NCBI GenBank assembly: GCA_934162195.1
Contig: CAKPHO010000001.1
Coordinates: forward strand, 81,281-145,280
Direction of reading: 5' to 3'
Source of the DNA: an uncultured Bacilli bacterium
GTDB lineage: Bacteria; Bacillota_I; Bacilli_A; RF39; UBA660
Length of the DNA: 64,000 nucleotides
In this document: piece by piece, positions 2,472-57,721 of the stretch
How the letters are laid out: each line of letters opens with the position of its first letter
Numbering within the stretch: position 1 is the first letter of the stretch
Made by a program: the position numbers and the translations under genes
The notes under the pieces: generated by a model
What the model was told of the DNA's origin: nothing
Databases searched by the model: none
What the model saw: only the letters and a program-made list of their open reading frames with translations

Positions 2472-2891
2472 TTATCTCTTTTCTTTAAAAAAAGATTTTA
2501 TACAATCAATATATTCATTTGATATTTTACATTCGCAAATGTCTAATTTTGATTCTATATTATATTTACTTTTAAATCCAAAATTCATATTTTTTAATCC
2601 ATAATTAATCTTGCTTATTCGCGATTGTTCTATTGCTCCATAACACATTAAACAAGGTTCCATTGTTGTATAGATTTCGCACCCGTCTAAATGCCATGTT
2701 TTTAATTTTTTACATGCTTTTTCTATAGCTATAATTTCAGCATGTTTAGTTGTTATTTTTTTATTTTCTTTTTTATTGTAAGCTTTAGATATAATTTTTC
2801 CATTTTTAACAATAACAGAACCTATAGGTACTTCTTGTTTTTTATAGGCTTTTATTGCTTGATTTAAGGCTATATTCATATATTCATTCAT
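2472..2891 (-). CDS. tadA: tRNA-specific adenosine deaminase
   Basis: Deaminase zinc motifs HAE and PCLMC. I place the start at ATG 2891-2889 behind a GGTGA RBS. The 11 extra N-terminal codons in the ORF track (MFHVEHFEGDK) are the parS palindrome read as protein. Confidence 0.85.
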   Translation of the reverse strand: MNEYMNIALNQAIKAYKKQEVPIGSVIVKNGKIISKAYNKKENKKITTKHAEIIAIEKACKKLKTWHLDGCEIYTTMEPCLMCYGAIEQSRISKINYGLKNMNFGFKSKYNIESKLDICECKISNEYIDCIKSFFKEKR

Positions 2892-2907
2892 TTTATCACC
2901 TTCAAAA

Positions 2908-2923
2908 TGTTCCACGTGGAACA
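2908..2923. promoter_or_regulatory. parS site 1 (ParB/Spo0J centromere-like palindrome)
   Basis: TGTTCCACGTGGAACA read directly. It matches the Bacillus parS consensus TGTTNCACGTGAAACA with one mismatch, which makes it a perfect palindrome. Confidence 0.85.
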
Positions 2924-2942
2924 TAGTTTTTGTTTTTTATAA

Positions 2943-2958
2943 TGTTTCACGTGAAACA
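2943..2958. promoter_or_regulatory. parS site 2
   Basis: TGTTTCACGTGAAACA, a perfect palindrome and an exact consensus match. It lies immediately downstream of the SRP RNA U-tail. Confidence 0.9.
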
Positions 2959-2969
2959 TTATAAAAAAA

Positions 2970-3042
2970 GCACACACATTTAGAGGATCTTAAGGCTGCT
3001 ATTTTCCAATTCTGACCTGGTTCAAACATAAATGTTGTGCAC
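2970..3042 (-). ncRNA. ffs: Signal recognition particle RNA, small (4.5S/Mollicute-like) type
   Basis: The minus-strand RNA is GUGCACAACAUUUAUGUUUGAACCAGGUCAGAAUUGGAAAAUAGCAGCCUUAAGAUCCUCUAAAUGUGUGUGC followed by U7. It has the conserved SRP domain IV (CCAGGUCAG .. GGAA tetraloop .. AGCAGCC) closed by a ~13-bp terminal helix. Its position next to tadA/dnaX matches B. subtilis scr. Ends are approximate (+-5 nt). Confidence 0.8.
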
Positions 3043-3119
3043 TAATAATATATTATATTTTTAATCTTTTTTCAACATTATATAACCTAATTTATAATTA
3101 AATTAAAAATAACCACATA

Positions 3120-3135
3120 TGTTTCATGTAAAATA
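3120..3135. promoter_or_regulatory. Degenerate parS-like site
   Basis: TGTTTCATGTAAAATA matches the perfect parS palindrome at 13 of 16 positions. The left half-site is intact and the right half-site has decayed. Confidence 0.4.
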
Positions 3136-3156
3136 TATTTAATAACTTATAAATTT

Positions 3157-3172
3157 TATTTCCCGGGAAATA
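3157..3172. promoter_or_regulatory. Noc-binding site (NBS) palindrome 1
   Basis: TATTTCCCGGGAAATA read directly. It is identical to the 16-bp NBS (core ATTTCCCGGGAAAT) described for B. subtilis Noc. The CCCGGG core is conspicuous in DNA this AT-rich. Confidence 0.8.
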
Positions 3173-3190
3173 GTTCTACAGAAAAAAGAA

Positions 3191-3206
3191 TGTTTCACGT
3201 GGAACA
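3191..3206. promoter_or_regulatory. parS site 3
   Basis: TGTTTCACGTGGAACA, which matches every specified position of the parS consensus TGTTNCACGTGNAACA. It lies 5 bp from the gyrA stop codon. Confidence 0.85.
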
Positions 3207-8867: not shown

Positions 8868-9317
8868 TTACTGATTTTTTCTATTTCTTAAAATTGATTC
8901 CAATCTTGATGCACGTAAAATTTGACTTTCTAATGAAAAAATTGAAATACTAAAATTAACTATGCTGTCATTTTTAAATATAATATCAGAACCTTCATTA
9001 TTTCTTAAATAAGTCTTTAAATTATTTAATGAAACCCAAGAACAATTTATTAATCTTGGAGATGTTGTAGGAAAAAAGATTATATTTTTACTTTCTTCTA
9101 TTATTATTGGTAATTTATAATTCATACCTATCATATTTTTTGTTCCTTCATATCTTCCTTGATACGTACTACCATAATAATTACAACTATCGTCAATTAT
9201 TTCAAAACAAGGTTTATTGACAATATATTCATTATCTAACTCAATAATTTTTGATGTATATTCATCAATTGGCATAACAGCTAGTGTACCACTATTTATT
9301 TCATAATTTTCTAACAT
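8868..9317 (-). CDS. ComK-family competence transcription factor-like protein
   Basis: 149 aa. From memory of B. subtilis ComK it is similar along its whole length: EINSGTLAVMP ~ EVNGATIAVLP; SCNYYGSTYQGR ~ SCRFFGSSYAGR; IFFPTTSPRLINCSWVSL ~ IFLFPTLSSTRPQCGWIS. It is shorter than Bsu ComK at the C-terminus. Confidence 0.7.
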   Translation of the reverse strand: MLENYEINSGTLAVMPIDEYTSKIIELDNEYIVNKPCFEIIDDSCNYYGSTYQGRYEGTKNMIGMNYKLPIIIEESKNIIFFPTTSPRLINCSWVSLNNLKTYLRNNEGSDIIFKNDSIVNFSISIFSLESQILRASRLESILRNRKNQ

Positions 9318-17783: not shown

Positions 17784-18480
17784 AACTGAATTTATAGAAG
17801 CTTTAAAAAATTTAAATATTCAACTTACAGACAGACAATTAGAACAACTAAATAAATATTATCAGCTTTTAGTTGAATGGAATAAATTTATGAATTTAAC
17901 TGGAATAACCGAAGAAAAAGAAGTATATTTGAAACATTTTTACGATAGTCTAACAATTGCTAGAATAATAGATTTAAAAAAAGAAAGAACACTATGTGAT
18001 ATAGGGAGTGGTGCAGGATTTCCAGGAATGGTTTTAAAGATAGTTTATCCTGATTTAAAGATAACTTTGGTTGATTCATTACAAAAACGTATAACATTTT
18101 TAAACGAAGTGGTAAAACAGTTAGATTTAAAAGATATAGAATTAGTTCATGACAGAGCAGAAGATTTTGCTAAAAATAACCGTGAAAAATATGATGTTGT
18201 AACAGCCCGTGCAGTAGCGCCAATAAATATTTTGATAGAGTATTGTTTACCATTGGTAAAAGTTGGGAAATATTTTATACCTATGAAAGGAAATATTTCC
18301 CGGGAAATAAATTTATTAGATAATTCTCTAAAAAAGATAGATGGAATGTTGTTAAAAAGTGATGAATTTTTACTACCAAAAGAAGACAGCAATCGTACTT
18401 TATTATTAATAACAAAACAAAAACCAACATCAAAACGATATCCCCGTAATCCAAAAGAAATAAAAAATAAGCCTTTATAG
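17776..18480 (+). CDS. rsmG: 16S rRNA (guanine527-N7)-methyltransferase RsmG
   Basis: SAM motif DIGSGAGFPG. The GTG start overlaps the mnmG stop. Confidence 0.9.
   Translation: MDKTEFIEALKNLNIQLTDRQLEQLNKYYQLLVEWNKFMNLTGITEEKEVYLKHFYDSLTIARIIDLKKERTLCDIGSGAGFPGMVLKIVYPDLKITLVDSLQKRITFLNEVVKQLDLKDIELVHDRAEDFAKNNREKYDVVTARAVAPINILIEYCLPLVKVGKYFIPMKGNISREINLLDNSLKKIDGMLLKSDEFLLPKEDSNRTLLLITKQKPTSKRYPRNPKEIKNKPL
18294..18309. promoter_or_regulatory. Noc-binding site (NBS) palindrome 2, inside rsmG
   Basis: TATTTCCCGGGAAATA read directly, in the codons for ..NISREIN.. Confidence 0.8.
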
Positions 18481-18492
18481 GTTTATTTTTTT
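18469..18492 (+). terminator. Intrinsic terminator after rsmG
   Basis: AAGCCT-TTAT-AGGTTT stem (one G-U pair) followed by a T-rich run. Confidence 0.55.
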
Positions 18493-18536
18493 ATTTCCCA
18501 AAAACTATTGAAATATTTCCCAAACTATAGTATTAT
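18492..18536 (+). promoter_or_regulatory. Promoter of the noc-like gene with two NBS half-site direct repeats
   Basis: TTGAAA (18508-18513), a 17-bp spacer, then TATTAT (18531-18536). TATTTCCCAAA occurs twice (18492-18502 and 18514-18524), 22 bp apart. The second copy fills the promoter spacer. Confidence 0.6.
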
Positions 18537-18569
18537 ATTAATATAAGAGAATAAGGAAGGGGAATTATT

Positions 18570-19814
18570 ATGGATAATAATAGAAAAGTGGTAGAACTTC
18601 CTTTAGAAGATGTTTTACCTAATAGATTTCAACCAAGAATAAAATTTAGTGAAGAAGCAATTAATGAATTATCTGAATCAATAAAAGAGCATGGAGTAAT
18701 ACAACCAATTGTTGTAAGACCGGTTGGAGACAGGTATGAAATTATAGCTGGCGAGAGAAGATTTAAAGCAACAACTTTAGCTGGTATTCCTACAATACCT
18801 GCAATTATTATAAATTTAAACGATAAAGAAAGTGCTGAAGTAGCATTAATTGAAAATGTTCAACGCCAAGATTTAACACCAATAGAAGAAGCTATATCTT
18901 ATAAAAAAATTCTAGATATGGGATATTTAAATCAAGAAAATTTAGCAGAAAAAATTGGAAAAAGTCAATCTGCTATAGCAAATAAATTAAGATTATTAAA
19001 TCTAGATGAAGATGTTCAAGAGGCATTATTAAATGGAAAAATATCAGAAAGACATGCACGTTCTTTATTAAAATTATCAAATAAAGAAGATCAAGTAAAA
19101 TTATTAAATAAAATAATAACAGAAAGATTAACTGTTAGAAAAACAGATGAGGAAATAAATAAAATGTTGACTGGAATAAAAGAAGAAAAGAATATACAAA
19201 ATGATGTTGAGGTTTTAAATTTTGATGAACCAATTATTATCCCGGCGGATTCATCAGAAGAAGTACTATCAAATTTAAATATTCCGAGCAATCCTATTAT
19301 TGAACCATCAAAAGATTTACCACAATCAGACAAAGATTCAATAATAAATCCTTTTTTAAATATAGAATCAGAGAAAAAAGAAGAACTTCCTAGATTTAGT
19401 GATTTATTAAAACCAAATAACTCGGATAAAATTTCAGAACAAAAACAAAGTAATTTTTTTACTGCTCCTTTTGAACCTGAAAATACTACAAAAGATATAA
19501 ATCCAACCGATTATGAATTTAATAACACTTTAGTACCAAACGAGGAACCAAGCAACAAAGATTTTACCATATCTCCAAACTTTGGCATTCCTAAATTTGA
19601 TGATTCCATTTTTAATGCAGATTCAAAAAATAGTACAATAAGTAACCCTGTAGTATCTTCAAATTCTGAAGTAGAAACAAGAAATCTTAAGATGGTTATT
19701 GATACATTTAGAGAATGCGAAAAAACTATTGAAAAATATGGTTTTATAGTAGATACAGAAGAATTTGATTTAGAAGATATGTATCAAGTTGTATTTAAAG
19801 TTCATAAGAAGTAG
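18570..19814 (+). CDS. noc: ParB-family protein with a Noc-type recognition helix (nucleoid occlusion protein-like, atypical architecture)
   Basis: ParB N-domain motifs PNRFQPR and AGERRFKA. The HTH region GKSQSAIANKLRLLNL..ISERHARSL resembles Bsu Noc (GKGQSTIANKLRLLKL..ITERHARAL) rather than Spo0J (GKSRPHIANHLRLLTL..LSMGHGRTL). It sits right after rsmG, as noc does in Bacillus. Confidence 0.75.
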   Translation: MDNNRKVVELPLEDVLPNRFQPRIKFSEEAINELSESIKEHGVIQPIVVRPVGDRYEIIAGERRFKATTLAGIPTIPAIIINLNDKESAEVALIENVQRQDLTPIEEAISYKKILDMGYLNQENLAEKIGKSQSAIANKLRLLNLDEDVQEALLNGKISERHARSLLKLSNKEDQVKLLNKIITERLTVRKTDEEINKMLTGIKEEKNIQNDVEVLNFDEPIIIPADSSEEVLSNLNIPSNPIIEPSKDLPQSDKDSIINPFLNIESEKKEELPRFSDLLKPNNSDKISEQKQSNFFTAPFEPENTTKDINPTDYEFNNTLVPNEEPSNKDFTISPNFGIPKFDDSIFNADSKNSTISNPVVSSNSEVETRNLKMVIDTFRECEKTIEKYGFIVDTEEFDLEDMYQVVFKVHKK

Positions 19815-19830
19815 AAATACTTCTTTTTTT
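19808..19830 (+). terminator. Intrinsic terminator after noc
   Basis: GAAGTA-GAAA-TACTTC followed by T7. It overlaps the stop codon. Confidence 0.75.
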
Positions 19831-19897
19831 CCAAAAATTATTTGCATTTGCGATAAAAATATCGTATACTTAATTAGTTCATTTGAAGGAGGTATAT

Positions 19898-30726: not shown

Positions 30727-30741
30727 TTGAATAAATATCAA

Positions 30742-30780
30742 AAAGATTGTCCACTATTAAATAGAAAGGACAATCTTTTT
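30742..30780 (+). terminator. Strong hairpin plus T-run ending 1 nt before the spoIIR ATG
   Basis: AAAGATTGTCC - 15-nt loop - GGACAATCTTT followed by TT. The 3' arm contains the only SD-like GGA for spoIIR. Confidence 0.7.
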
Positions 30781-31305
30781 ATGAAAAAAACAATATTTAT
30801 TTTAATAACAATATTTTTAATTTATTATATAATTGGAGCTTTAAGTGAGGAGATAATAAGGATTCCAGACGAGGCAATTAGATTTAGAGTAATAGCTAAT
30901 AGTAATACAAAACAAGATCAAGATGTAAAATATAAAGTAAAAGATGAAGTAGAATTATATATGGCATCGATTTTACAAAATGTTGATAATATTGATGAAT
31001 CTAGAGATATTATTTCTACTAATTTAGATAGTATAAATAATAAAGTGACTAATGTATTTAATAAAAATAATTACAATCTAAATTATAAAGTTAATTTTGG
31101 ATTAAATTACTTTCCTGAGAAAGAATTCAAGGGAATAATTTATGATGCTGGATATTATGAATCACTAGTTATCACCATTGGAGAAGGAAAAGGTGATAAT
31201 TGGTGGTGTGTATTATTTCCTCCTTTATGTATGTTAGAAGCAGAAGAAAGTACAGACATAGAATATAAATCTTTTGTAAAGGAAATTGTTGATAAGTATA
31301 TATAA
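30781..31305 (+). CDS. spoIIR: Stage II sporulation protein R
   Basis: Signal/TM segment then IRFRVIANSN.. and the family motif GEGKGDNWWCVLFPPLC. The start is at ATG 30781. Confidence 0.8.
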   Translation: MKKTIFILITIFLIYYIIGALSEEIIRIPDEAIRFRVIANSNTKQDQDVKYKVKDEVELYMASILQNVDNIDESRDIISTNLDSINNKVTNVFNKNNYNLNYKVNFGLNYFPEKEFKGIIYDAGYYESLVITIGEGKGDNWWCVLFPPLCMLEAEESTDIEYKSFVKEIVDKYI

Positions 31306-37118: not shown

Positions 37119-38351
37119 TTATTTTTTAATTATTTTTTTAACTATTTTATAAGTCTTAAACATGAAATTATATAAACAATATTTAGGTTTTGATATTATT
37201 AAGTCAAATTCTCCAATTAGTTCAACAACTCGTCCGCCAAAACCTCTTTTAAATTCATAAACACCATACATATCATTGTTTTCTTTTTCAAAATTACCAC
37301 TTATACCATAGAAGTTATATATTTCACATCCTAAATTTAAGGCTTCTTTCATCGTATGCCATTTTATCAAATATTGAGCATCATAATGCATAAATTCTTC
37401 ATAAGCTCCACCAAATAAATTTAAATATTCTTTTCCACATACAATAGACATTGTGCCTGCCAAAGGGATTTTATCACCATATTTTTTTTGGTAACTCTCG
37501 TATAGTTCTATTTTCTTTTTATAATCTTCTATATCTTTCAAATGATAATCTTTAATATCTTGGTATCCTTCAATCTTTTTTATTTCATCTTTAAATTTAT
37601 TTATACCTAAATTTGTATCAAGGTAGCACACATTTATTATTAGGTCCTCACCAATTTTATCATACATGTTTTCATAATACGAATAAGGTCTATCAATGAA
37701 ATCACGTCTTGAACTTGTGTGTTCCATTATTTTTTTGTAGTCCATTAGTTTATCTTTAGAAATTCTTTCAACAACTAAACCTTGCTTTTCTGTTCTTCTA
37801 ATCGTTTTTCGATAATGTTTACTAAAGTTAGAAAAAATTTCATCTTCGGTCTTACCTTTTAAATCTAAAACGTACATCCAACGAGGTTGCAATTCTTTAG
37901 ATATATCTTTGTTAAAACCATAATGTTTAAAGCCTAATTTCTTTAAATTTTCTACTACTTTGGAGTTGTCAACTCCACCTTCAACGATATTTCCATCAAT
38001 ATCTCTTGTTTTGTATTCAACATAAGGATCTATTTTCAAAATAAACCCGTTTTCCTTTTTTACATATTCTTTAATTTCTAAAACAAACTCTTTTAATAAT
38101 TCTTCATCATTATAATCAATTAAAAAACCTCTTGGTGAATAAAAAAGCTTTAATCCTAGTGGGAGATTTTTAAATAATAATAAAGTTGCTCCAACAATTT
38201 TATTATTTTTCTTCATTCCTACTAATTTGTAATTCCAACCACCATCTTTTTTTAGTTTTCCCCAATATTCTTTTTGATAAAAAGTTGTATATTTATTTTT
38301 TGAGATATATTCTTCATATTCGTTACTTTCTAATTCTTCTATCTTCATCAT
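37119..38351 (-). CDS. FemABX-family peptidoglycan peptidyltransferase, paralogue 1
   Basis: 410 aa with family blocks FYSPRGFLIDY, ILKIDPY and YNFYGISGNF..GVYEFKRGFGG, plus a central coiled-coil insert as in FemA/FemB. Confidence 0.85.
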   Translation of the reverse strand: MMKIEELESNEYEEYISKNKYTTFYQKEYWGKLKKDGGWNYKLVGMKKNNKIVGATLLLFKNLPLGLKLFYSPRGFLIDYNDEELLKEFVLEIKEYVKKENGFILKIDPYVEYKTRDIDGNIVEGGVDNSKVVENLKKLGFKHYGFNKDISKELQPRWMYVLDLKGKTEDEIFSNFSKHYRKTIRRTEKQGLVVERISKDKLMDYKKIMEHTSSRRDFIDRPYSYYENMYDKIGEDLIINVCYLDTNLGINKFKDEIKKIEGYQDIKDYHLKDIEDYKKKIELYESYQKKYGDKIPLAGTMSIVCGKEYLNLFGGAYEEFMHYDAQYLIKWHTMKEALNLGCEIYNFYGISGNFEKENNDMYGVYEFKRGFGGRVVELIGEFDLIISKPKYCLYNFMFKTYKIVKKIIKK

Positions 38352-38541
38352 ATCCCTCCAAGCCTAAGGCAATTATATCACGCCAACAAAAATCTGTAAA
38401 TAAATATAGGTTAAAATAACTGACACTAGTATATCTGTTTTTAATGTCGTTTATTGACTAGTTTAGTGATTTTCTTAAAAAAACTTTTATTAAAAATTAT
38501 TTTGTAGTATGATATTAATAGTTATGATTGGAGGGAATTTA

Positions 38542-39780
38542 ATGAAATTCGAAATATTAAGTGAAGATGAATATAATAAATTTTTTGACAATCATGAACA
38601 AAAAACTTTTTTAAATAGCCCTAATATTGGTAAAATTCGCAAACTAGAAGGTTGGAATTATGAATTTGTTGGTGTAAAAGATGTCGACAATAAAATAATA
38701 GGCGTTACTATGTTATTGTCTAGGAAAGAATTTCTAGGTAAAAAAGAATTTTATGCAATTAGAGGTTTTTTGTTAGATTACAATAATTTTAAGTTACTAT
38801 CCTTTTTTACAGATAATATTAAAAAATATATAAAGAAAAATAATGGCTTTATATTAAGAATTGATCCCTATATTATCAAACAAGAACATGACTTAAATGG
38901 AAATGTTATGCCAAATGGGAAAAATAATATTATGGTTATAAAAAATCTATTGAAACTAAATTTTAAGGAACATACACCAGAGCAAACAAAGTGGATGTTT
39001 GAACTTAATACTGAAAATAAGACTATAGATGAACTTTTAAAAGATATGAAAGCTAATACTAGAAATTGCATTAAAAGAACTTTTAAAAATGGAATTAACA
39101 TTAGAGAACTTACTTATGATGAGCTACCTCTCTTTTATAAAATAACAAATGATACTAGTAAAAGAAAAGGTTTTGAAAATAAAACTTTAGAATATTATCA
39201 AGACATGTATAAATTTTTCAAACCAAGTAATCAAGTTAAATTTTTGGTGGCTGAATTAAATACAAAAAATTATAAAGAAAACCTAGATAATCAATTAAAG
39301 ACAGAAGAGAATATTTTAAGAGGAATAAAAAATAATAATAGTGGAAAATATAAAGAACAACTAGTAAAGATTAATAGTATTAAAAAAAATCTCAAAGAAT
39401 CATCTGAGTTGATAAAAAAAGGAGATATAATCATTTTATCAGCAGCAATGTTTGTTATGTATGGAAATGAAGTTATTTATCTTGCTAGTGGAAATTACCA
39501 AGAATATTTTAATTTTTTTGCTCAATATAGAATTCAATATGAAATGATTAAATATGCAACAGAAAATAACTTTAAAATATATAATTTTTACGGTATAAGT
39601 GGTAATTTTGATATCAATGATGATAGAATTGGTGTCTATGAATTTAAAAAAGGATTTGGTGGATTTGTAGTTGAATTAATTGGCGAGTATAGATTAGATA
39701 TTAATAAATTATGGTGCATTCTTTATGATTTTGTTAATGTTATTAAAAATAATATAAAGAAAATAATAAATGGGAAGTGA
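38542..39780 (+). CDS. FemABX-family peptidoglycan peptidyltransferase, paralogue 2
   Basis: The same blocks (FYAIRGFLLDY, ILRIDPY, YNFYGISGNF..GVYEFKKGFGG) and a coiled-coil insert. The start is at ATG 38542 behind GGAGGG. Confidence 0.85.
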   Translation: MKFEILSEDEYNKFFDNHEQKTFLNSPNIGKIRKLEGWNYEFVGVKDVDNKIIGVTMLLSRKEFLGKKEFYAIRGFLLDYNNFKLLSFFTDNIKKYIKKNNGFILRIDPYIIKQEHDLNGNVMPNGKNNIMVIKNLLKLNFKEHTPEQTKWMFELNTENKTIDELLKDMKANTRNCIKRTFKNGINIRELTYDELPLFYKITNDTSKRKGFENKTLEYYQDMYKFFKPSNQVKFLVAELNTKNYKENLDNQLKTEENILRGIKNNNSGKYKEQLVKINSIKKNLKESSELIKKGDIIILSAAMFVMYGNEVIYLASGNYQEYFNFFAQYRIQYEMIKYATENNFKIYNFYGISGNFDINDDRIGVYEFKKGFGGFVVELIGEYRLDINKLWCILYDFVNVIKNNIKKIINGK

Positions 39781-39784
39781 AATT

Positions 39785-41053
39785 ATGAAATATGAATTTA
39801 TAGAAAAAATTGAAAAAAAAGAGTATGAAAAATTTGTGGAAAATCATCCAACTAAATCACATTTTATGCAATCGTGGAATTTTGGAGAAATAAGTAAAGA
39901 AAAAGGATTTATTCCACATTTCGTTGGTGTTAGGAAAAATAAAAAGTTAGTAGCAACAGCTTTACTACTTCAAAAAAAGTTATATAAAAATATTTGTTAT
40001 TTCTATAGTCCTCGTGGTTATGTTTTAGATTTTAAAGATTATGAATTATTAAAATATTTTACTAATCAAATTAAAGAGTATACCAAAAAATATCATTCTA
40101 TTTTTACAGCAATAGATCCTGATGTACAACTTCAAAAGTTAGATATTAATGGAAATGTTGTAGAAGGAGATCATAATTATGCATTAGTTGAATATTTAAA
40201 ATCGCTAGGTTATAAACATCTTGGTTTTAATAAAAATTTTGAAAATAAAGAACCAAGATATACATTTAGATTAAATTTAGAACCAAGTATAGAGGAAATA
40301 CATAAAAATATGCATGCAACAACAAGAAAAATTCTAAATAAAGGTAATCAGTATAACTTAGATTGTTATATTGGCGATTCTTCAGATTTAGATGGATTTT
40401 ATTTTACGATGAAAGAAACAGCAGTTCGAGAGGGGATAACACCGTTTAAATATTCATACTATAAATCTTTTTATGAAACATTTAATAAAGATAATGAAAG
40501 TGATTTATATATAGTAAGAGTTGATATTAATAAATTAAAAGAAAATTATAAAAATCAAATAAAAGACATTGAAAATAGTATTGACAATCTAAAAAATTTA
40601 AAAAATAAAGAAAAAGCTAATAATTTATTAAAAGATTACAATAATAAATTATCTAGATTAAATAAAGATTTTGAGTTAATAAATAATATAAAGGAAGATA
40701 AATTAGTTTTATCATCAATTATAACAGTAAAATATGGTAATAAAGTTTGGACTGTTCATGGTGGTAATTGCAATAGATTAAGAGAATTGAATGCCAATTA
40801 TTTAATATACGATAAAATCATTTGCGATGCTAAAAAGGAAAATTATCAAATAATTGATTTCTTTGGAACAACTGGCGCAGACTCAGATGATAATAAAATT
40901 CATGGTATCCATTTATTTAAAAAACGTTTAGGTGGAGAATATACTGAATTTATAGGTGAATTCCATTTAATAACAAATAAATTTTTATATGTTTTATATC
41001 AAAAATTATTACCATTATATTCAAAAATGCGTAAAAAAATTGCTAAAAAATAA
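39785..41053 (+). CDS. FemABX-family peptidoglycan peptidyltransferase, paralogue 3 (most divergent)
   Basis: FYSPRGYVLDF, TAIDPD and IDFFGTTG..GIHLFKKRLGG, with a long coiled-coil insert. The start at ATG 39785 is 5 nt after the paralogue 2 stop. Confidence 0.85.
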   Translation: MKYEFIEKIEKKEYEKFVENHPTKSHFMQSWNFGEISKEKGFIPHFVGVRKNKKLVATALLLQKKLYKNICYFYSPRGYVLDFKDYELLKYFTNQIKEYTKKYHSIFTAIDPDVQLQKLDINGNVVEGDHNYALVEYLKSLGYKHLGFNKNFENKEPRYTFRLNLEPSIEEIHKNMHATTRKILNKGNQYNLDCYIGDSSDLDGFYFTMKETAVREGITPFKYSYYKSFYETFNKDNESDLYIVRVDINKLKENYKNQIKDIENSIDNLKNLKNKEKANNLLKDYNNKLSRLNKDFELINNIKEDKLVLSSIITVKYGNKVWTVHGGNCNRLRELNANYLIYDKIICDAKKENYQIIDFFGTTGADSDDNKIHGIHLFKKRLGGEYTEFIGEFHLITNKFLYVLYQKLLPLYSKMRKKIAKK

Positions 41054-42898: not shown

Positions 42899-44107
42899 AT
42901 GAAGATTATCAAGAAGTTTTTAAATATTTTTCTCGTTTTAATGCTCTTTTCAGCATCAATTTTTGTCCCAGAAGTAAAAGTTGATGCTAAAACATTAGGT
43001 GATTTAAAAAAAGAACTCGCTGAGATGGAAGCTAATTACCAAAGCAATCAACAAAGTAAAAATTTGACAGAGCAACAAATCAATGCTGCAAGATCAGAAA
43101 TTAATGCAGCTTCTGCTGAAATAGAAAATTCTCAAACAGAAATAAAAAATTTGAATGACGAAATAGAAAAATTAACAGAAGAAATAAAAAATAAAGAAGA
43201 AGAAATAAGAGAATTTATTCGTTATTATCAATTATCTAACGGTGAATCTGCTTATTTAGAATATGTTTTTGGAGCTGCTGATTATACTGATTTTATTTAC
43301 AGATTGGCTATTACTGAACAACTAACAAAATATAATGATAATTTGGTTAAAAAATATAATGAAACTATTGAGCAAAATAAGAAGAACGCTCAAACGTTAG
43401 CAGATAAACAAGTTGAACTTTCAAAAAAACAAGATACTTTAGCTCAGAAGATAGAAAATTTGGGTAGTGAATTAGCTGCCATATCAGATGAAAGTATATC
43501 AATAGAAGAAGAAATAAAAATGCAAAAAGAAGCAATTGATTACTATCAAAATCAATTAAAATGTAAAGATACAGAAAGTTTGAGTACTTGTGGAAGAGAT
43601 CAATTGCCAGCAAATACAGCTTTCTTTAGACCTATAACAAGTGGTTATGTTACAAGTGAGTTTGGTCAAAGAACATTTGATTTCCACTATGGTGTAGATT
43701 TATCCACAACAGCTGATAAAGCTCCTGTATATGCTGCAGCATCAGGAGTTGTTATAACAGTTATGTATAAGACGAGTTGTGGAGGTACCAGAGTTTATAT
43801 TCACCATAATGTAAATGGTCAAATGTATACAACTTCTTATGGACATTTAAGAGAAGCTCTCGTTTCAAAAGGAGATAGAGTAACAACTAATACTCAAATA
43901 GGAATCATGGGAGGAAATCCTAATAGAGAGACTTGGGATAAATGTTCAACAGGACAACATGTTCATTTCGTAATTGCTAATGGATTATACCTAAAAGATT
44001 ATATGTATTGGAGTACATTTTTATCAAAATCATTCAATCCAAGAAATCTTGTTAATTTACCATCTGGTAAATATAATTGGTTCTATAATAGAACAACCAA
44101 ATACTAA
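42899..44107 (+). CDS. Secreted coiled-coil + M23 (LytM) metalloendopeptidase
   Basis: Signal peptide, a coiled coil of about 200 aa, and M23 motifs FHYGVDL (HxxxD) and GQHVHFV (HxH). Confidence 0.85.
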   Translation: MKIIKKFLNIFLVLMLFSASIFVPEVKVDAKTLGDLKKELAEMEANYQSNQQSKNLTEQQINAARSEINAASAEIENSQTEIKNLNDEIEKLTEEIKNKEEEIREFIRYYQLSNGESAYLEYVFGAADYTDFIYRLAITEQLTKYNDNLVKKYNETIEQNKKNAQTLADKQVELSKKQDTLAQKIENLGSELAAISDESISIEEEIKMQKEAIDYYQNQLKCKDTESLSTCGRDQLPANTAFFRPITSGYVTSEFGQRTFDFHYGVDLSTTADKAPVYAAASGVVITVMYKTSCGGTRVYIHHNVNGQMYTTSYGHLREALVSKGDRVTTNTQIGIMGGNPNRETWDKCSTGQHVHFVIANGLYLKDYMYWSTFLSKSFNPRNLVNLPSGKYNWFYNRTTKY

Positions 44108-44174
44108 AAAAGTCAGAACTATGTTTTGATTTTTTTTTCGTTTTATGTTATATTAACTATACGAGGTTGATGAT

Positions 44175-45629
44175 ATGAAGAAAGTATTTTTAATTATTTT
44201 TATTTTAGTTCTTTCTAGTGTTACTGTTTTTCTGGGGCTTTCAACCCAAAAAAGTTCACAACCTAACACATATTATCAAGTAACTCTAGATGGTGAATTA
44301 ATTGGTAATATCAAGTCTAAAAGACAGTTAGAAAAATATATAAGCAATACAGAAGAGTATTTAAAAAACAAATATAATATAAATGAAGTATATGCTCCTA
44401 ATGGATTAGAAATAAAAAAGATAGTTAGTTATACCGAAGATATAAAAGATGTTGGTGAAATATATAATTTAATTCAAGATAAGAAACCTTTTACGGTTAA
44501 AGGGTATCAATTAACTATATATAATGATGACAATAGTCAAAAAATATATGTTATAGATGATAGTATTTATAAAACATCTTTAGAAAATTCAATAAAAACA
44601 TTTGTGGGGACAGATGCCTATAACAACTATATATCTAAGAATCAAGCAAAAATTAAAGATACAGGTACATATATAAATAATATATATATTGAGAATAATA
44701 TGAGTATAAAAGATGCTTATATACCTGCTACTGAAAAAATATATACCTCAGCTGAAGAACTTACTAAATATTTATTATTTGGTACAACAGACCAACAAAA
44801 AAAATATGTAGTAAATTTAGGAGATACAATGGAACAAGTCGCATTTGATAATGAGATAAGTGTGGAAGAGTTATTAATCTCTAATCCACAGTTTAAAAAT
44901 TCAAATGCATTGTTGTATCCGGGACAGGAATTAGTAATAGGAATTTTAGATCCACAAATAAAGGTAACTGTTGAACAACAGGTTGTTGAAGATCTTGTTG
45001 ATTCATATAAAACAATAGAGGAAGTTGATGAAACATTAAACTATGGTGTTACAAAGGTAACACAACAAGGTGAAGATGGATTATTAAGAATCAAACAAGA
45101 TGTAAAAATTACTAATGGTACAACAGTGTACGTAAAACAAATATCAAAAGAATCTTTAAAACCAGCTATAAATAAAATTATTGTAAAAGGTGGTAAGAGA
45201 ACCTACGGTATTGGTAGTACTTCTTGGCAATGGCCTACTGATAGTGGATGGACGATATCTTCTAATTATTCTTATAGAATTAACCCAGTTACAGGTAGAC
45301 GTGAGCTTCATGGAGCTTTAGATATTGCAGGTACTGGATATGGTTCAAATGTATATGCAGCTAATAGTGGCGTTATTTATAAAAAATCATATGATGGAAT
45401 AAATGGAAACCACATTATTATTAATCATAATAATGGCTATTATACGCAATACAATCATATGAGTAGAATGGAATCACTATCTGTTGGTGATGAAGTAGAA
45501 AAAGGTCAAGTAATAGGATATATAGGTATGACCGGTCAAGCAACGGGACCACATTTACACTTTGCTGCTTGGTACGGTGGTCCTCCATATCGAGGAACAC
45601 GTATTAATCCATGGACATTATTTAGATAA
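44175..45629 (+). CDS. LysM + G5 + M23 metalloendopeptidase
   Basis: N-terminal anchor, LysM (YVVNLGDTMEQVAFDNEISVEELLISNP..LYPGQELVIG), a G5-like block (..TKVTQQGEDGLLRI..IIVKGG), and M23 motifs LHGALDI and GPHLHFA. Confidence 0.85.
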   Translation: MKKVFLIIFILVLSSVTVFLGLSTQKSSQPNTYYQVTLDGELIGNIKSKRQLEKYISNTEEYLKNKYNINEVYAPNGLEIKKIVSYTEDIKDVGEIYNLIQDKKPFTVKGYQLTIYNDDNSQKIYVIDDSIYKTSLENSIKTFVGTDAYNNYISKNQAKIKDTGTYINNIYIENNMSIKDAYIPATEKIYTSAEELTKYLLFGTTDQQKKYVVNLGDTMEQVAFDNEISVEELLISNPQFKNSNALLYPGQELVIGILDPQIKVTVEQQVVEDLVDSYKTIEEVDETLNYGVTKVTQQGEDGLLRIKQDVKITNGTTVYVKQISKESLKPAINKIIVKGGKRTYGIGSTSWQWPTDSGWTISSNYSYRINPVTGRRELHGALDIAGTGYGSNVYAANSGVIYKKSYDGINGNHIIINHNNGYYTQYNHMSRMESLSVGDEVEKGQVIGYIGMTGQATGPHLHFAAWYGGPPYRGTRINPWTLFR

Positions 45630-56582: not shown

Positions 56583-57140
56583 TTATATTTTCTTTTCAAG
56601 GTAGTAATTTCTTAATTCTTTAAATCGTTGATAGTGAATAACTTCTCTTTGACGTAGGAATGCTAGAGGTGCTAGTAAATCAGGATCGTTGGTTAAATCC
56701 ATTAAATGTTCATATGTTGCTCTAGCTCTTTGTTCAGCAGCCATATCTGATTCAATATCAGCAATATAATCTCCTGTTGTTTCTATGTAAGCAGCAGTAA
56801 AAGGAACACCAAAAGCGTCTGCTGGGAATATTCCATGATCATGTTGTGCAAACTGCGCATCTAATCCAGCAGCAGTTAATTCTTCTACTGTAGCACCATT
56901 AACTAATTGTGTTATCATAGCTGCAATCATTTCAATGTGAGCAAGTTCCTCTGTTCCAATGTCAGTAAGAAGAGCTTTGCCTCTTTCATCAGGCATTGTA
57001 TATCTTTGATTTAAATATCTTAAAGCTGCACTTAATTCACCAGTACTACCTCCATATTGCGATAGCAAATTTTTAGCCATTTTTAAATCTTTTCTGCGAA
57101 TATTAACAGGATATTCTAATTTCTTTTCATAAATCCACAT
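56583..57140 (-). CDS. cotJC: Spore coat protein CotJC (manganese-catalase-like)
   Basis: MWIYEKKLEYPV.., ..GELSAALRYLNQRY.., ..EELAHIEMI.. The start is placed at ATG 57140 behind AGGAGGG. Confidence 0.85.
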   Translation of the reverse strand: MWIYEKKLEYPVNIRRKDLKMAKNLLSQYGGSTGELSAALRYLNQRYTMPDERGKALLTDIGTEELAHIEMIAAMITQLVNGATVEELTAAGLDAQFAQHDHGIFPADAFGVPFTAAYIETTGDYIADIESDMAAEQRARATYEHLMDLTNDPDLLAPLAFLRQREVIHYQRFKELRNYYLEKKI

Positions 57141-57150
57141 ATTATCCCTC

Positions 57151-57588
57151 CTATTTCTTATCCCAAGGCCATGGTTCATTATCCCAAGCCCAAGGGAATG
57201 TATTAAGTGAGTTGCTAGTTAATTGTAAAGGCCCATATTTATTTTCATAATTTTTAGTAGCTTCTATAGCTTGTTTGCGATATTCATTAAAAAGTTGTAA
57301 TGCTTCCTTATCATCAGGGTGAACATCTAAATAAAGATTTAAATCAGTCATCGCAAAAGTATACATATCTACATATGTAAGAAGCTCCGCTTGTTCATTC
57401 ATTGGAGTTATTTCATAAGGCTTATCTGTTCTATAAAAATTGTATAAAGCAGGAAACATATTTCCTCTTATATAGCCATTGTATACATCATAAACACTAT
57501 TTTTTTCTACATTTTGATTATACAAAGGTTGATTGTAATTATTATTAATATAGTTATAATAATCTTGGTTTAAGTTATAACTATTCAT
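57151..57588 (-). CDS. cotJB: Spore coat protein CotJB-like with an N-terminal extension
   Basis: The C-terminal half (..ELLTYVDMYTFAMTDLNLYLDVHPDDKEALQLFNEYRK..YENKYGPL) is CotJB-like. The start is placed at ATG 57588 behind AGGAGGG. Confidence 0.7.
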   Translation of the reverse strand: MNSYNLNQDYYNYINNNYNQPLYNQNVEKNSVYDVYNGYIRGNMFPALYNFYRTDKPYEITPMNEQAELLTYVDMYTFAMTDLNLYLDVHPDDKEALQLFNEYRKQAIEATKNYENKYGPLQLTSNSLNTFPWAWDNEPWPWDKK

Positions 57589-57721
57589 AATATCCCTCCT
57601 CGTTTTATTGTATGGAACTAATAAATTAGTGTATAGGTATATAACTAATTTATCTTTTTTTATAAAAACTCTTGTCAAATTGCTTAAAACTTGTTAAAAT
57701 ATTTGTTGTCAGCAATGACAT

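Follow-up and report, generated by a model that had tools for sequence, protein, structure and literature searches.

What could a Noc protein do if the helix with which it reaches the membrane is missing? This question is raised by a 64-kb stretch of DNA (64,000 nucleotides, referred to as "the window" in this study) from an uncultured Bacilli bacterium, which carries a gene for a protein of the ParB/Noc family. The current model of Noc function rests on one feature, a cytidine triphosphate (CTP)-gated N-terminal amphipathic helix that pulls DNA bound at Noc-binding sites (NBS) to the membrane. This helix was present in all Noc homologues examined by Adams et al. (2015), and the membrane-targeting helix alpha1, helix alpha2 and the alpha2-beta1 loop are the Noc-specific elements according to Jalal et al. 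(2021). The original prediction for this gene, made from the letters of the window, was that of a protein with Noc-type specificity that lacks the helix, carries a very long linker and has no soj-spo0J partners. Our analysis suggests that the gene is very likely orthologous to noc, in an uncultured low-GC lineage of walled Bacilli, and encodes an NBS-binding clamp of the Noc lineage, and that such widespread helix-less Noc proteins probably link the chromosome to the cell envelope or the division machinery by a different route. The gene and the parts of its product are as follows.

18570-19814, plus strand: noc-like gene, 414 amino acids (aa), a ParB-family CTP clamp of the Noc lineage in its long-linker form (open reading frame, domain and homology searches).
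18579-19172, plus strand: folded N-terminal CTP-binding domain and domain for DNA binding with a helix-turn-helix (HTH), aa 4-201, with GERRFKA at aa 61-67 and ENVQR at aa 95-99 (Pfam, AlphaFold2, alignment).
19173-19679, plus strand: linker, aa 202-370, acidic (net charge -17) and intrinsically disordered (AlphaFold2 predicted local distance difference test score, pLDDT, mostly <50).
19680-19811, plus strand: C-terminal dimerisation domain of the Noc type, one helix and two strands (pLDDT 82-89; match to the NCBIfam Noc model TIGR04285).

Homologues were analysed as the 120 closest sequences and as 150 representatives at 50% identity, and motifs were counted on 121 linkers. Pfam places ParB_N at aa 6-98 (E = 7e-34) and HTH_ParB at aa 100-199, and the AlphaFold2 model, built with a 44-sequence alignment, shows confident folds at aa 4-201 and aa 373-412, with pLDDT values below 50 for most of aa 204-370. 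Neither of the two CTP-binding motifs, GERRxKA and ENxQR, is disrupted in the window protein, and both are kept across the 150 representatives. The top solved-structure matches of the protein are the Noc entries 7ng0, 7nfu and 7ol9, and its first 200 aa share 57% identity with Noc of Geobacillus thermoleovorans, versus 48% with the Spo0J that the lineage itself encodes. Its top NCBIfam match is TIGR04285, hit in two stretches with 293.2 bits, under the curated cut-off of 315 bits; the shortfall arises because the match is interrupted across the linker, and a distant homologue (L008) that scores 277 bits is also under the cut-off. As the last 55 residues alone match positions 211-255 of this model, the C-terminal domain is of the Noc type. 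The ParA-binding motif LG[KR]GL is absent from the N-terminus of the window protein (MDNNRKVVELPLEDV).

The DNA-binding residues point in the same direction. ParB (R-T-A-G) is converted to Noc (Q-K-K-R) by changes at positions 173, 179, 184 and 201 (Caulobacter ParB numbering); Q173 and R201 switch the specificity, a single lysine at either 179 or 184 suffices for DNA binding, and R173 and G201 are invariant in extant ParB (Jalal et al. 2020, PMC7383237). At these positions the window protein carries QKNR (Q133, K139, N144 and R161), where B. subtilis Noc has QKKR. The same QKNR is found in 127 of the 150 representatives, and Q173 and R201 are present in every one of them, with K179 in most. 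The original prediction had read the Q, K and R of the recognition region as Noc-type; the alignment bears this out, the Spo0J-type R173 and G201 being absent, and so do the perfect NBS palindromes in the window and in related loci. There are two mismatch-free copies of the 14-mer ATTTCCCGGGAAAT, at 3158 and 18295, and a copy with a single mismatch at 869, whereas only 0.28 matches with up to two mismatches are expected in the window.

18294-18309, no strand assigned: perfect 16-bp NBS TATTTCCCGGGAAATA, candidate Noc loading site, in the 3' part of rsmG, 275 bp 5' of noc.
3157-3172, no strand assigned: second perfect NBS, intergenic, between gyrA and the signal recognition particle (SRP) RNA gene.
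869-882, no strand assigned: NBS with one mismatch, ATTTCCCAGGAAAT, within dnaX.

The NBS in rsmG encodes I-S-R-E-I as ATT TCC CGG GAA ATA. Two of these codons are rare: in 28 genes of the window, 2 of 453 Arg codons (0.4%) are CGG and 3% of Ser codons are TCC. All nine related loci that encode ISREI use exactly these five codons, while neighbouring synonymous positions vary; it follows that the site is maintained at the DNA level. Three further loci have CAG (Gln) here, which leaves an NBS with one mismatch.

Sites for the other branch of the family are also present in the window. Perfect or near-perfect parS palindromes lie at 2908 (TGTTCCACGTGGAACA), 2943 (TGTTTCACGTGAAACA) and 3191 (TGTTTCACGTGGAACA), and this trio (2908-3206) and the perfect NBS at 3158 crowd together between gyrA and tadA, round the SRP RNA gene (minus strand, 2954-3050). 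With only 19 bp between the NBS and a parS, the loading points of Noc and ParB clamps would nearly coincide. The mechanically called tadA reading frame (2472-2924, minus strand) starts MFHVEHFEGDK..., where the codons spell out the parS site; the tadA start chosen by gene callers is 11 codons later (139 aa), which places the parS just upstream of, or at, the tadA start.

The start of the noc gene is well defined. A TAA at 18552-18554 stands in frame with the ATG and 15 nt 5' of it, a strong ribosome-binding site (AGGAAGGGG) is located just 5' of the ATG, and the best promoter match ends 34 nt 5' of the ATG:

18508-18536, plus strand: predicted sigma-70-type promoter of noc, TTGAAA, 17 nt, TATTAT (consensus scan; -35 at 18508, -10 at 18531).

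With the in-frame stop, the ribosome-binding site and the promoter directly 5' of it, the start is fixed and a longer N-terminus is impossible, just as had been concluded from the TAA in the original prediction. Only 8 residues stand ahead of the ParB N-domain. Canonical Noc proteins have the N-termini MKHSFSRFFGLGEKEQEPEIAEHDTNKEE (B. subtilis, 7ol9) and MKHPFSRLFSFGEKEQEEMEEKQEREE (G. thermoleovorans, 7nfu), with the openings MKHSFSRFFGLGEKEQE and MKHPFSRLFSFGEKEQE. In the alignment to the structure entries, Noc residue 26 is the counterpart of residues 3-5 in the window protein, and approximately 23-25 residues, comprising alpha1, alpha2 and the alpha2-beta1 loop, are therefore missing. The N-terminus M-D/E-x-x-[RK]-K-V-V-E-L is common to all 120 closest homologues. 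Among the 150 representatives, PNRFQPR is preceded by 14-21 residues in 143 and by 25-33 in four; in the other three the motif is a variant and was unmatched. The absence of the membrane-targeting helix, as claimed for the window protein, is thus confirmed by the upstream stop, the alignment and the homologues: the short N-terminus is shared by the 120 close homologues and the 150 representatives, and the helix is lacking in every one of these 270 family members.

The linker between the two folded parts is the other distinctive feature. It comprises approximately 170 aa here, compared to the usual 20-30 aa or so in Noc, and consists of 10% Pro and 33% N/S/T/Q. All 120 closest homologues, whose linkers measure 159-302 aa, and all 150 representatives, where the range is 46-738 aa (total protein 291-982 aa), have a long linker. 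None of the 121 linkers is positively charged; their net charge ranges from -2 to -160, with a median of about -35 to -38. When the window gene is compared to that of a 92% relative (L001), the ratio of nonsynonymous to synonymous substitution rates (dN/dS) is 0.15 for the linker, 0.02 for the N-terminal and DNA-binding domains and 0.13 for the C-terminal domain; judged by these ratios, the linker is under purifying selection and is not neutral. No transmembrane segment was found in any linker scanned, and no Pfam domain was detected in the linkers, even in the ten longest members (500-740 aa). The hydrophobic moment analysis (Eisenberg) revealed no cationic amphipathic helix, all top windows lying in the folded domains. 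The linker length given in the original prediction is therefore a family-wide and selected property and not that of a strain-specific insertion. The term "low-complexity" is less apt, as "acidic and disordered" fits the charge and the pLDDT values better. In the longest members (P0217, P0154 and P0187; 834-982 aa), linkers of 600-740 aa are largely made up of PEVK-like P-V-V-E-T-P-V repeats with several copies of FSKFLDP-type motifs and no Pfam domain.

Short motifs stand out within these variable chains. They were sought by unbiased counting of gapped patterns in the 121 linkers against shuffled linkers, and the enrichment over shuffles was 6-21 fold. [KR]FF occurs in 83 linkers (mean of shuffles, 3.9; window form, SNFFTAPF). 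P.F.D occurs in 63 (mean of shuffles, 10.6) and derives from NPGFMD(I/V)xKIE and (I/L)PKF(S/E)DL(L/F), with the window form NPFLNIESE...LPRFSDLL. IP..P[IV] occurs in 51 (mean of shuffles, 5.9; window form, IPSNPIIE). In the window protein the elements are arranged as follows.

19209-19244, plus strand: motif EVLNFDEPIIIP, aa 214-225, conserved within the close subgroup.
19281-19304, plus strand: motif IPSNPIIE, aa 238-245, family form IPxxPI[IV].
19341-19409, plus strand: module NPFLNIESEKKEELPRFSDLL, aa 258-280, a degenerate NPGFMD(I/V)xKIE...P.F.DLL(KP) that contains P-x-F-x-D.
19452-19475, plus strand: FF motif NFFTAPFE, aa 295-302, in which alignment A1 shows F296 to be invariant; no other linker segment is as hydrophobic on the interfacial scale.
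19578-19616, plus strand: motif NFGIPKFDDSIFN, aa 337-349, conserved within the close subgroup, with a short predicted helix at aa 346-350.

The three aromatic motifs singled out in the original prediction lie on or next to these conserved elements: NPFLNIES is a degenerate form of NPGFMD.xKIE, FFTAPF contains the invariant FF, and FGIPKFDD is conserved in the close subgroup, where the consensus is NFGIPxFDDSxF. Some members carry the PKF/FSKF motif in two or three copies. In a consensus-type member (P0051) the NPGFMD module is predicted by AlphaFold2 as a helix with a pLDDT of 78 within an otherwise unconfident linker. Such a lone confident helix is typical of an element that folds upon binding.

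The most universal linker motif is the FF motif, G-[KR]-F-F-N-φ-φ plus an acidic run, with the logo L-K-P-G-[KR]-F-F-[NT]-[FML]-[FLM]-[ND]-E-E-E. Its pattern (basic, FF, small, hydrophobic, acidic run) resembles that of the canonical Noc N-terminus, S-R-F-F-G-L-G-E-K-E-Q-E. On the Wimley-White interfacial scale, the best 8-mer of B. subtilis Noc, FSRFFGLG, scores -3.0 kcal/mol and that of the window linker, SNFFTAPF, -2.1 kcal/mol, while the FF motifs of many family members (FFNFGGFT, FFNMFNFN and GGRFFGMF) reach -3 to -3.9 kcal/mol. The most hydrophobic 8-mer includes the FF motif in 76 of 150 linkers.

These features suggest a mechanism in which Noc dimers, like those of B. subtilis Noc, would nucleate at NBS sites (here those inside rsmG and next to gyrA) and, with CTP bound, become closed, sliding clamps that spread. 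Their output would then pass through the short conserved motifs on the long tether and not through an N-terminal helix. Of these motifs, FF would be the likeliest to serve as a weak, relocated contact to the membrane, acting by avidity once many clamps are loaded. The P-x-F-x-D/NPGFMD.xKIE module and the IPxxPIIE motif look like sites that may fold upon binding to protein partners or in self-regulation. We lean towards the linker motifs being the effector, as a relocated membrane contact, as partner-binding sites, or as both; that the FF motif specifically contacts the membrane is a tentative proposal. It is conceivable, if doubtful, that a large branch of Noc performs nucleoid occlusion, or couples the chromosome to the envelope in some other way, without an N-terminal helix, the contact peptide (G-[KR]-F-F-N-φ-φ, with the PxFxD modules) having moved into the tether, as a second mechanistic solution. 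The effector contact would in that case be gated not by CTP-controlled autoinhibition, as it is in B. subtilis Noc, but by avidity and reach (tens of nanometres) or by the capture of divisome proteins.

Several points speak against this interpretation. Regarding the Noc assignment, they are the score below the TIGR04285 cut-off (293 versus 315 bits) and the fourth specificity residue, which is N144 and not the lysine corresponding to K184. Regarding the linker, the FF motif is not predicted to be helical (pLDDT <50 in both models), and its surroundings are acidic, with a mean net charge of -2.3 over 20 residues, so that anionic membranes should be disfavoured. In the window protein the motif is degenerate, with no basic residue and the weaker value of -2.1 kcal/mol. 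Its likeness to the core of the canonical helix extends over approximately 6 residues and could be convergent or due to chance. As for partners, [ILV]P.F is only weakly enriched family-wide (given as ~2-fold, 37 of 121 linkers versus 29 in shuffles), no ftsZ or minD gene is present in any fetched locus, and no conserved partner gene stands beside noc, the neighbour being pyk here and uvrB or glycosyltransferases in relatives.

Two other explanations concern the linker itself. It might be a passive tether or polyanionic brush, the clamp loading at NBS and making no membrane contact while the chain serves as an entropic or electrostatic bristle or spacer; such a chain might sterically exclude division proteins, enlarge the clamp lumen or tune spreading, or the protein might be a chromosome organiser and autorepressor. 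This would agree with the uniformly acidic charge of all 121 linkers, their highly variable length (with the PEVK-like PVVETPV repeats of the longest members), the lack of a cationic amphipathic helix or transmembrane segment in any of them, and the NBS half-sites conserved in the noc promoter (see below). However, a pure spacer needs composition and not motifs, and the position-specific motifs conserved across representatives at 50% identity, 6-21 fold over shuffles, therefore argue otherwise, as do the invariance of F296, the one module with a pLDDT of 78 and the linker dN/dS of 0.15; we consider a brush rather unlikely. Alternatively, the motifs might recruit divisome or membrane-anchor proteins exclusively, with no contact to lipid. 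For example, LPRFSDLL and GIPKFDDS could mimic the FtsZ C-terminal peptide, DIPxFL(R/K), and NBS-bound Noc would titrate or capture Z-ring anchors over the nucleoid. An acidic and aromatic make-up, as seen here, is typical of short linear motifs that bind proteins, some members carry as many as three copies of [IL]PKFEDL[LF] or FSKFLDP, and the FtsZ C-terminal peptide is the docking site of FtsA, EzrA and SepF (PMC12747378). Yet the weak enrichment of [ILV]P.F makes mimicry of the FtsZ tail less likely as a family-wide explanation, and the residues that follow the F are acidic instead of L-R/K. A tether that acts through partners only appears decidedly unlikely to us.

The remaining explanations question the identity of the protein or the reality of its features. 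That it is a chromosomal ParB for segregation and SMC (structural maintenance of chromosomes) loading, with drifted specificity and no role in nucleoid occlusion, might be thought from its surroundings: no second ParB-family gene was found in the window by tblastn, no ParB in the 6.8 kb and 8 kb added at its ends (133-kb source contig, ENA ERZ28614312 scaffold_431), and no soj-spo0J within the approximately 86 kb read around oriC; moreover, NCBI names the relatives only "ParB/RepB/Spo0J family partition protein". However, canonical soj-spo0J pairs do occur in genomes of the family. In L008-type relatives the order is rsmG-noc-uvrB-holin-lgt-trxB-soj-spo0J-mscS, with soj-spo0J 4.4 kb 3' of noc. 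In a relative that shares the gene order of the window after noc (trxB-yvcK-whiA; SIG204 contig, 82,176 nt), ftsH-soj-spo0J-DUF951-ychF-rpsF-ssb-rpsR lies approximately 38 kb from noc, on the other side of oriC. At the species level the link rests on matching longest contigs between clusters and not on sequence read: a member (P0490) of the 90% cluster to which the window protein belongs shares a longest contig of 446,398 nt with a Spo0J (P0502), and the Noc-like P0007 shares one of 107,263 nt with the Spo0J P0508. Spo0J P0502 has the LGKGL ParA-binding motif (as METKKRALGKGLEELF), R173, G201 and a soj neighbour, whereas the window protein has no LG[KR]GL, has Q173 and R201, and is encoded in DNA with separate parS and NBS sites. 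With the soj-spo0J of relatives, the features of P0502 and the parS palindromes, the lineage very probably has a normal Soj/Spo0J/parS system, and the distance of soj-spo0J from noc very probably reflects rearrangement and not loss. The lack of soj-spo0J partners in the original prediction is thus a local property, and a role as the sole ParB of the genome was rejected on the grounds of the parS sites, the pairs in relatives and P0502; a drifted chromosomal ParB is very improbable. An artefact, in which an ordinary noc has been given a wrong start or bears a frameshift or a low-complexity insertion peculiar to one strain, would be in keeping with the frequent expansion of low-complexity coding sequence in AT-rich genomes. 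Its probability is practically negligible: a mis-set start is ruled out by the stop 15 nt 5' of the ATG, the adjacent promoter and the homologues with the same short N-terminus, and an insertion or frameshift by a linker that is present in all homologues and under purifying selection.

In the soj-spo0J locus of the lineage, a Bro-N domain gene was seen between ftsH and soj (L025 8318-9157; L026 6419-9157), and in one sample a 463-aa N_methyl (pilin-like) gene was found there as well; this may be a small mobile insertion.

The helix-less Noc probably also represses its own promoter, as two NBS half-sites, ATTTCCC, are found there.

18493-18521, plus strand: two NBS half-sites ATTTCCC (18493-18499 and 18515-18521), candidate autoregulatory operator, in an arrangement conserved in most related loci.

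The half-site at 18493 is 9 nt 5' of the -35 hexamer, and that at 18515 is inside the spacer between the -35 and -10 elements. Conservation of the 130 bp 5' of noc is striking, as the Noc proteins of the loci compared share only 45-92% identity, and the half-sites are kept in most of 16 loci. At the same spot, some of the related loci (L001-L015) have a palindrome with swapped halves (GGGAAATATTTCCC), or a full NBS plus a half-site. In the window as a whole, the ATTTCCC heptamer shows no significant enrichment (14 versus 9.0 expected), but 5 of the 14 matches fall in 18265-18521, and this clustering near noc, together with the conserved positions, is notable. In the proposed scheme, the noc promoter would be repressed by its own product through the two half-sites, and half-sites that are spaced or re-oriented could plausibly be occupied by a DNA-binding domain whose tether is very long and flexible.

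The noc gene is directly 3' of rsmG (gidB) near oriC, and this placement was the same in all loci fetched. The position right after rsmG is that of noc in Bacillus. The order on the plus strand is rpmH, rnpA, yidC, jag, mnmE, mnmG, rsmG, noc, then pyk and uvrB; dnaA, dnaN, a comK-like gene, recF, gyrB and gyrA are the minus-strand genes of this origin-proximal array. The end of the gene is marked by a hairpin:

19806-19832, plus strand: AT-rich 8-bp hairpin plus U7, a probable intrinsic terminator that overlaps the noc stop codon (folding free energy -7.5 kcal/mol, z -3.0).

The consensus terminator scan missed this hairpin because it has too few G-C pairs and falls below the G+C threshold. 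A terminator followed by pyk had been noted before, and both were found at the stop codon and next to it, respectively. With its own predicted promoter and terminator, noc is monocistronic between rsmG and pyk and is in no operon with soj/parA.

The DNA of the window has a GC content of 26%. Its closest genomes are metagenome-assembled genomes (MAGs) of uncultured organisms that bear the label Bacilli, Bacillota, Tenericutes or Mollicutes; the metagenomes are of human (Hadza), animal and digester origin. Encoded in the window are murA, three FemAB-family proteins, a MurJ-like flippase, PcsB-like and LysM-G5 M23 peptidases, SpoIIR (Pfam E = 2e-42) and CotJB/CotJC, and SpoIID lies just past its end; the sporulation and ComK-family genes are at 30727-31305, 56583-57678 and 8868-9317 (and at L017 15102-16442). 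These cell-wall and sporulation genes in or next to the window indicate that the organism is walled and not a wall-less mollicute, and that it probably forms spores. The ComK-family reading frame stands between dnaN and recF, and sporulation-related genes are unexpected for MAGs labelled Tenericutes or Mollicutes. The tandem FemAB-family trio, the MurJ-like flippase, the PcsB-like coiled-coil M23 peptidase and the LysM-G5-M23 peptidase (37119-41053 and 42899-45629) make up a cluster for cell-wall cross-bridges and division hydrolases. A Bacilli-type oriC together with the Noc variant was also seen on several contigs (L009, L010, L013 and L015) in MAGs titled "uncultured Muribaculaceae bacterium", seemingly the result of mis-binning or of a wrong label.

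The NBS-specific CTP clamp is kept, without the helix on which the current Noc model rests, in a family that numbers at least 150 clusters at 50% identity and is common among uncultured Bacilli of the gut and of digesters. If the linker motifs are indeed the effector, then either the membrane-targeting peptide can be relocated within the clamp, or Noc can work via protein partners, for which the search in B. subtilis has been unsuccessful. With linkers of about 50 to 740 aa, the family also provides a natural series of clamp "lumen" sizes, in which clamp loading, sliding and the bypass of roadblocks could be related to linker length, and the half-sites in the promoter suggest autoregulation of Noc. 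From a practical point of view, the whole family is missed by the NCBIfam Noc model and, where named, carries only the general partition-protein name. We found no description of a helix-less or long-linker Noc in the open-access literature, including a 2025 survey of the ParB-CTPase fold.

Compared to Noc of B. subtilis and G. thermoleovorans, the window protein is alike in: its position next to rsmG; the CTP-binding N-domain; the HTH with Q173, K179 and R201; the C-terminal domain; the identity over the first 200 aa; the lack of LG[KR]GL; and the presence of the NBS palindrome in the genome. It differs in that alpha1, alpha2 and the alpha2-beta1 loop are absent, and in that the linker is acidic, disordered, motif-bearing and up to ~740 aa long in the family, whereas that of Noc is short and basic. 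It further differs in the asparagine at position 184, the score below the TIGR04285 cut-off and the NBS half-sites in its own promoter. With chromosomal ParB/Spo0J, which is present in the lineage as a paralogue (P0502 and P0363; 48% identity), it shares the fold, the domain order and the CTP clamp motifs; Spo0J differs by its N-terminal LG[KR]GL, R173/G201, short linker (293 aa total) and adjacent soj. SlmA of E. coli is a functional analogue only, being a site-specific DNA-bound nucleoid-occlusion factor with an unrelated TetR fold, no CTP clamp and no disordered tether. SlmA acts through contact with the FtsZ tail and not through a membrane helix, which is a precedent for a protein-mediated route, although FtsZ binding by the Noc variant has no support here. 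The design principle is shared with FtsZ, whose long, variable, disordered C-terminal linker presents a short conserved peptide that docks on membrane anchors (PMC12747378); it belongs to a different family, and the motifs of the Noc variant are internal and multiple.

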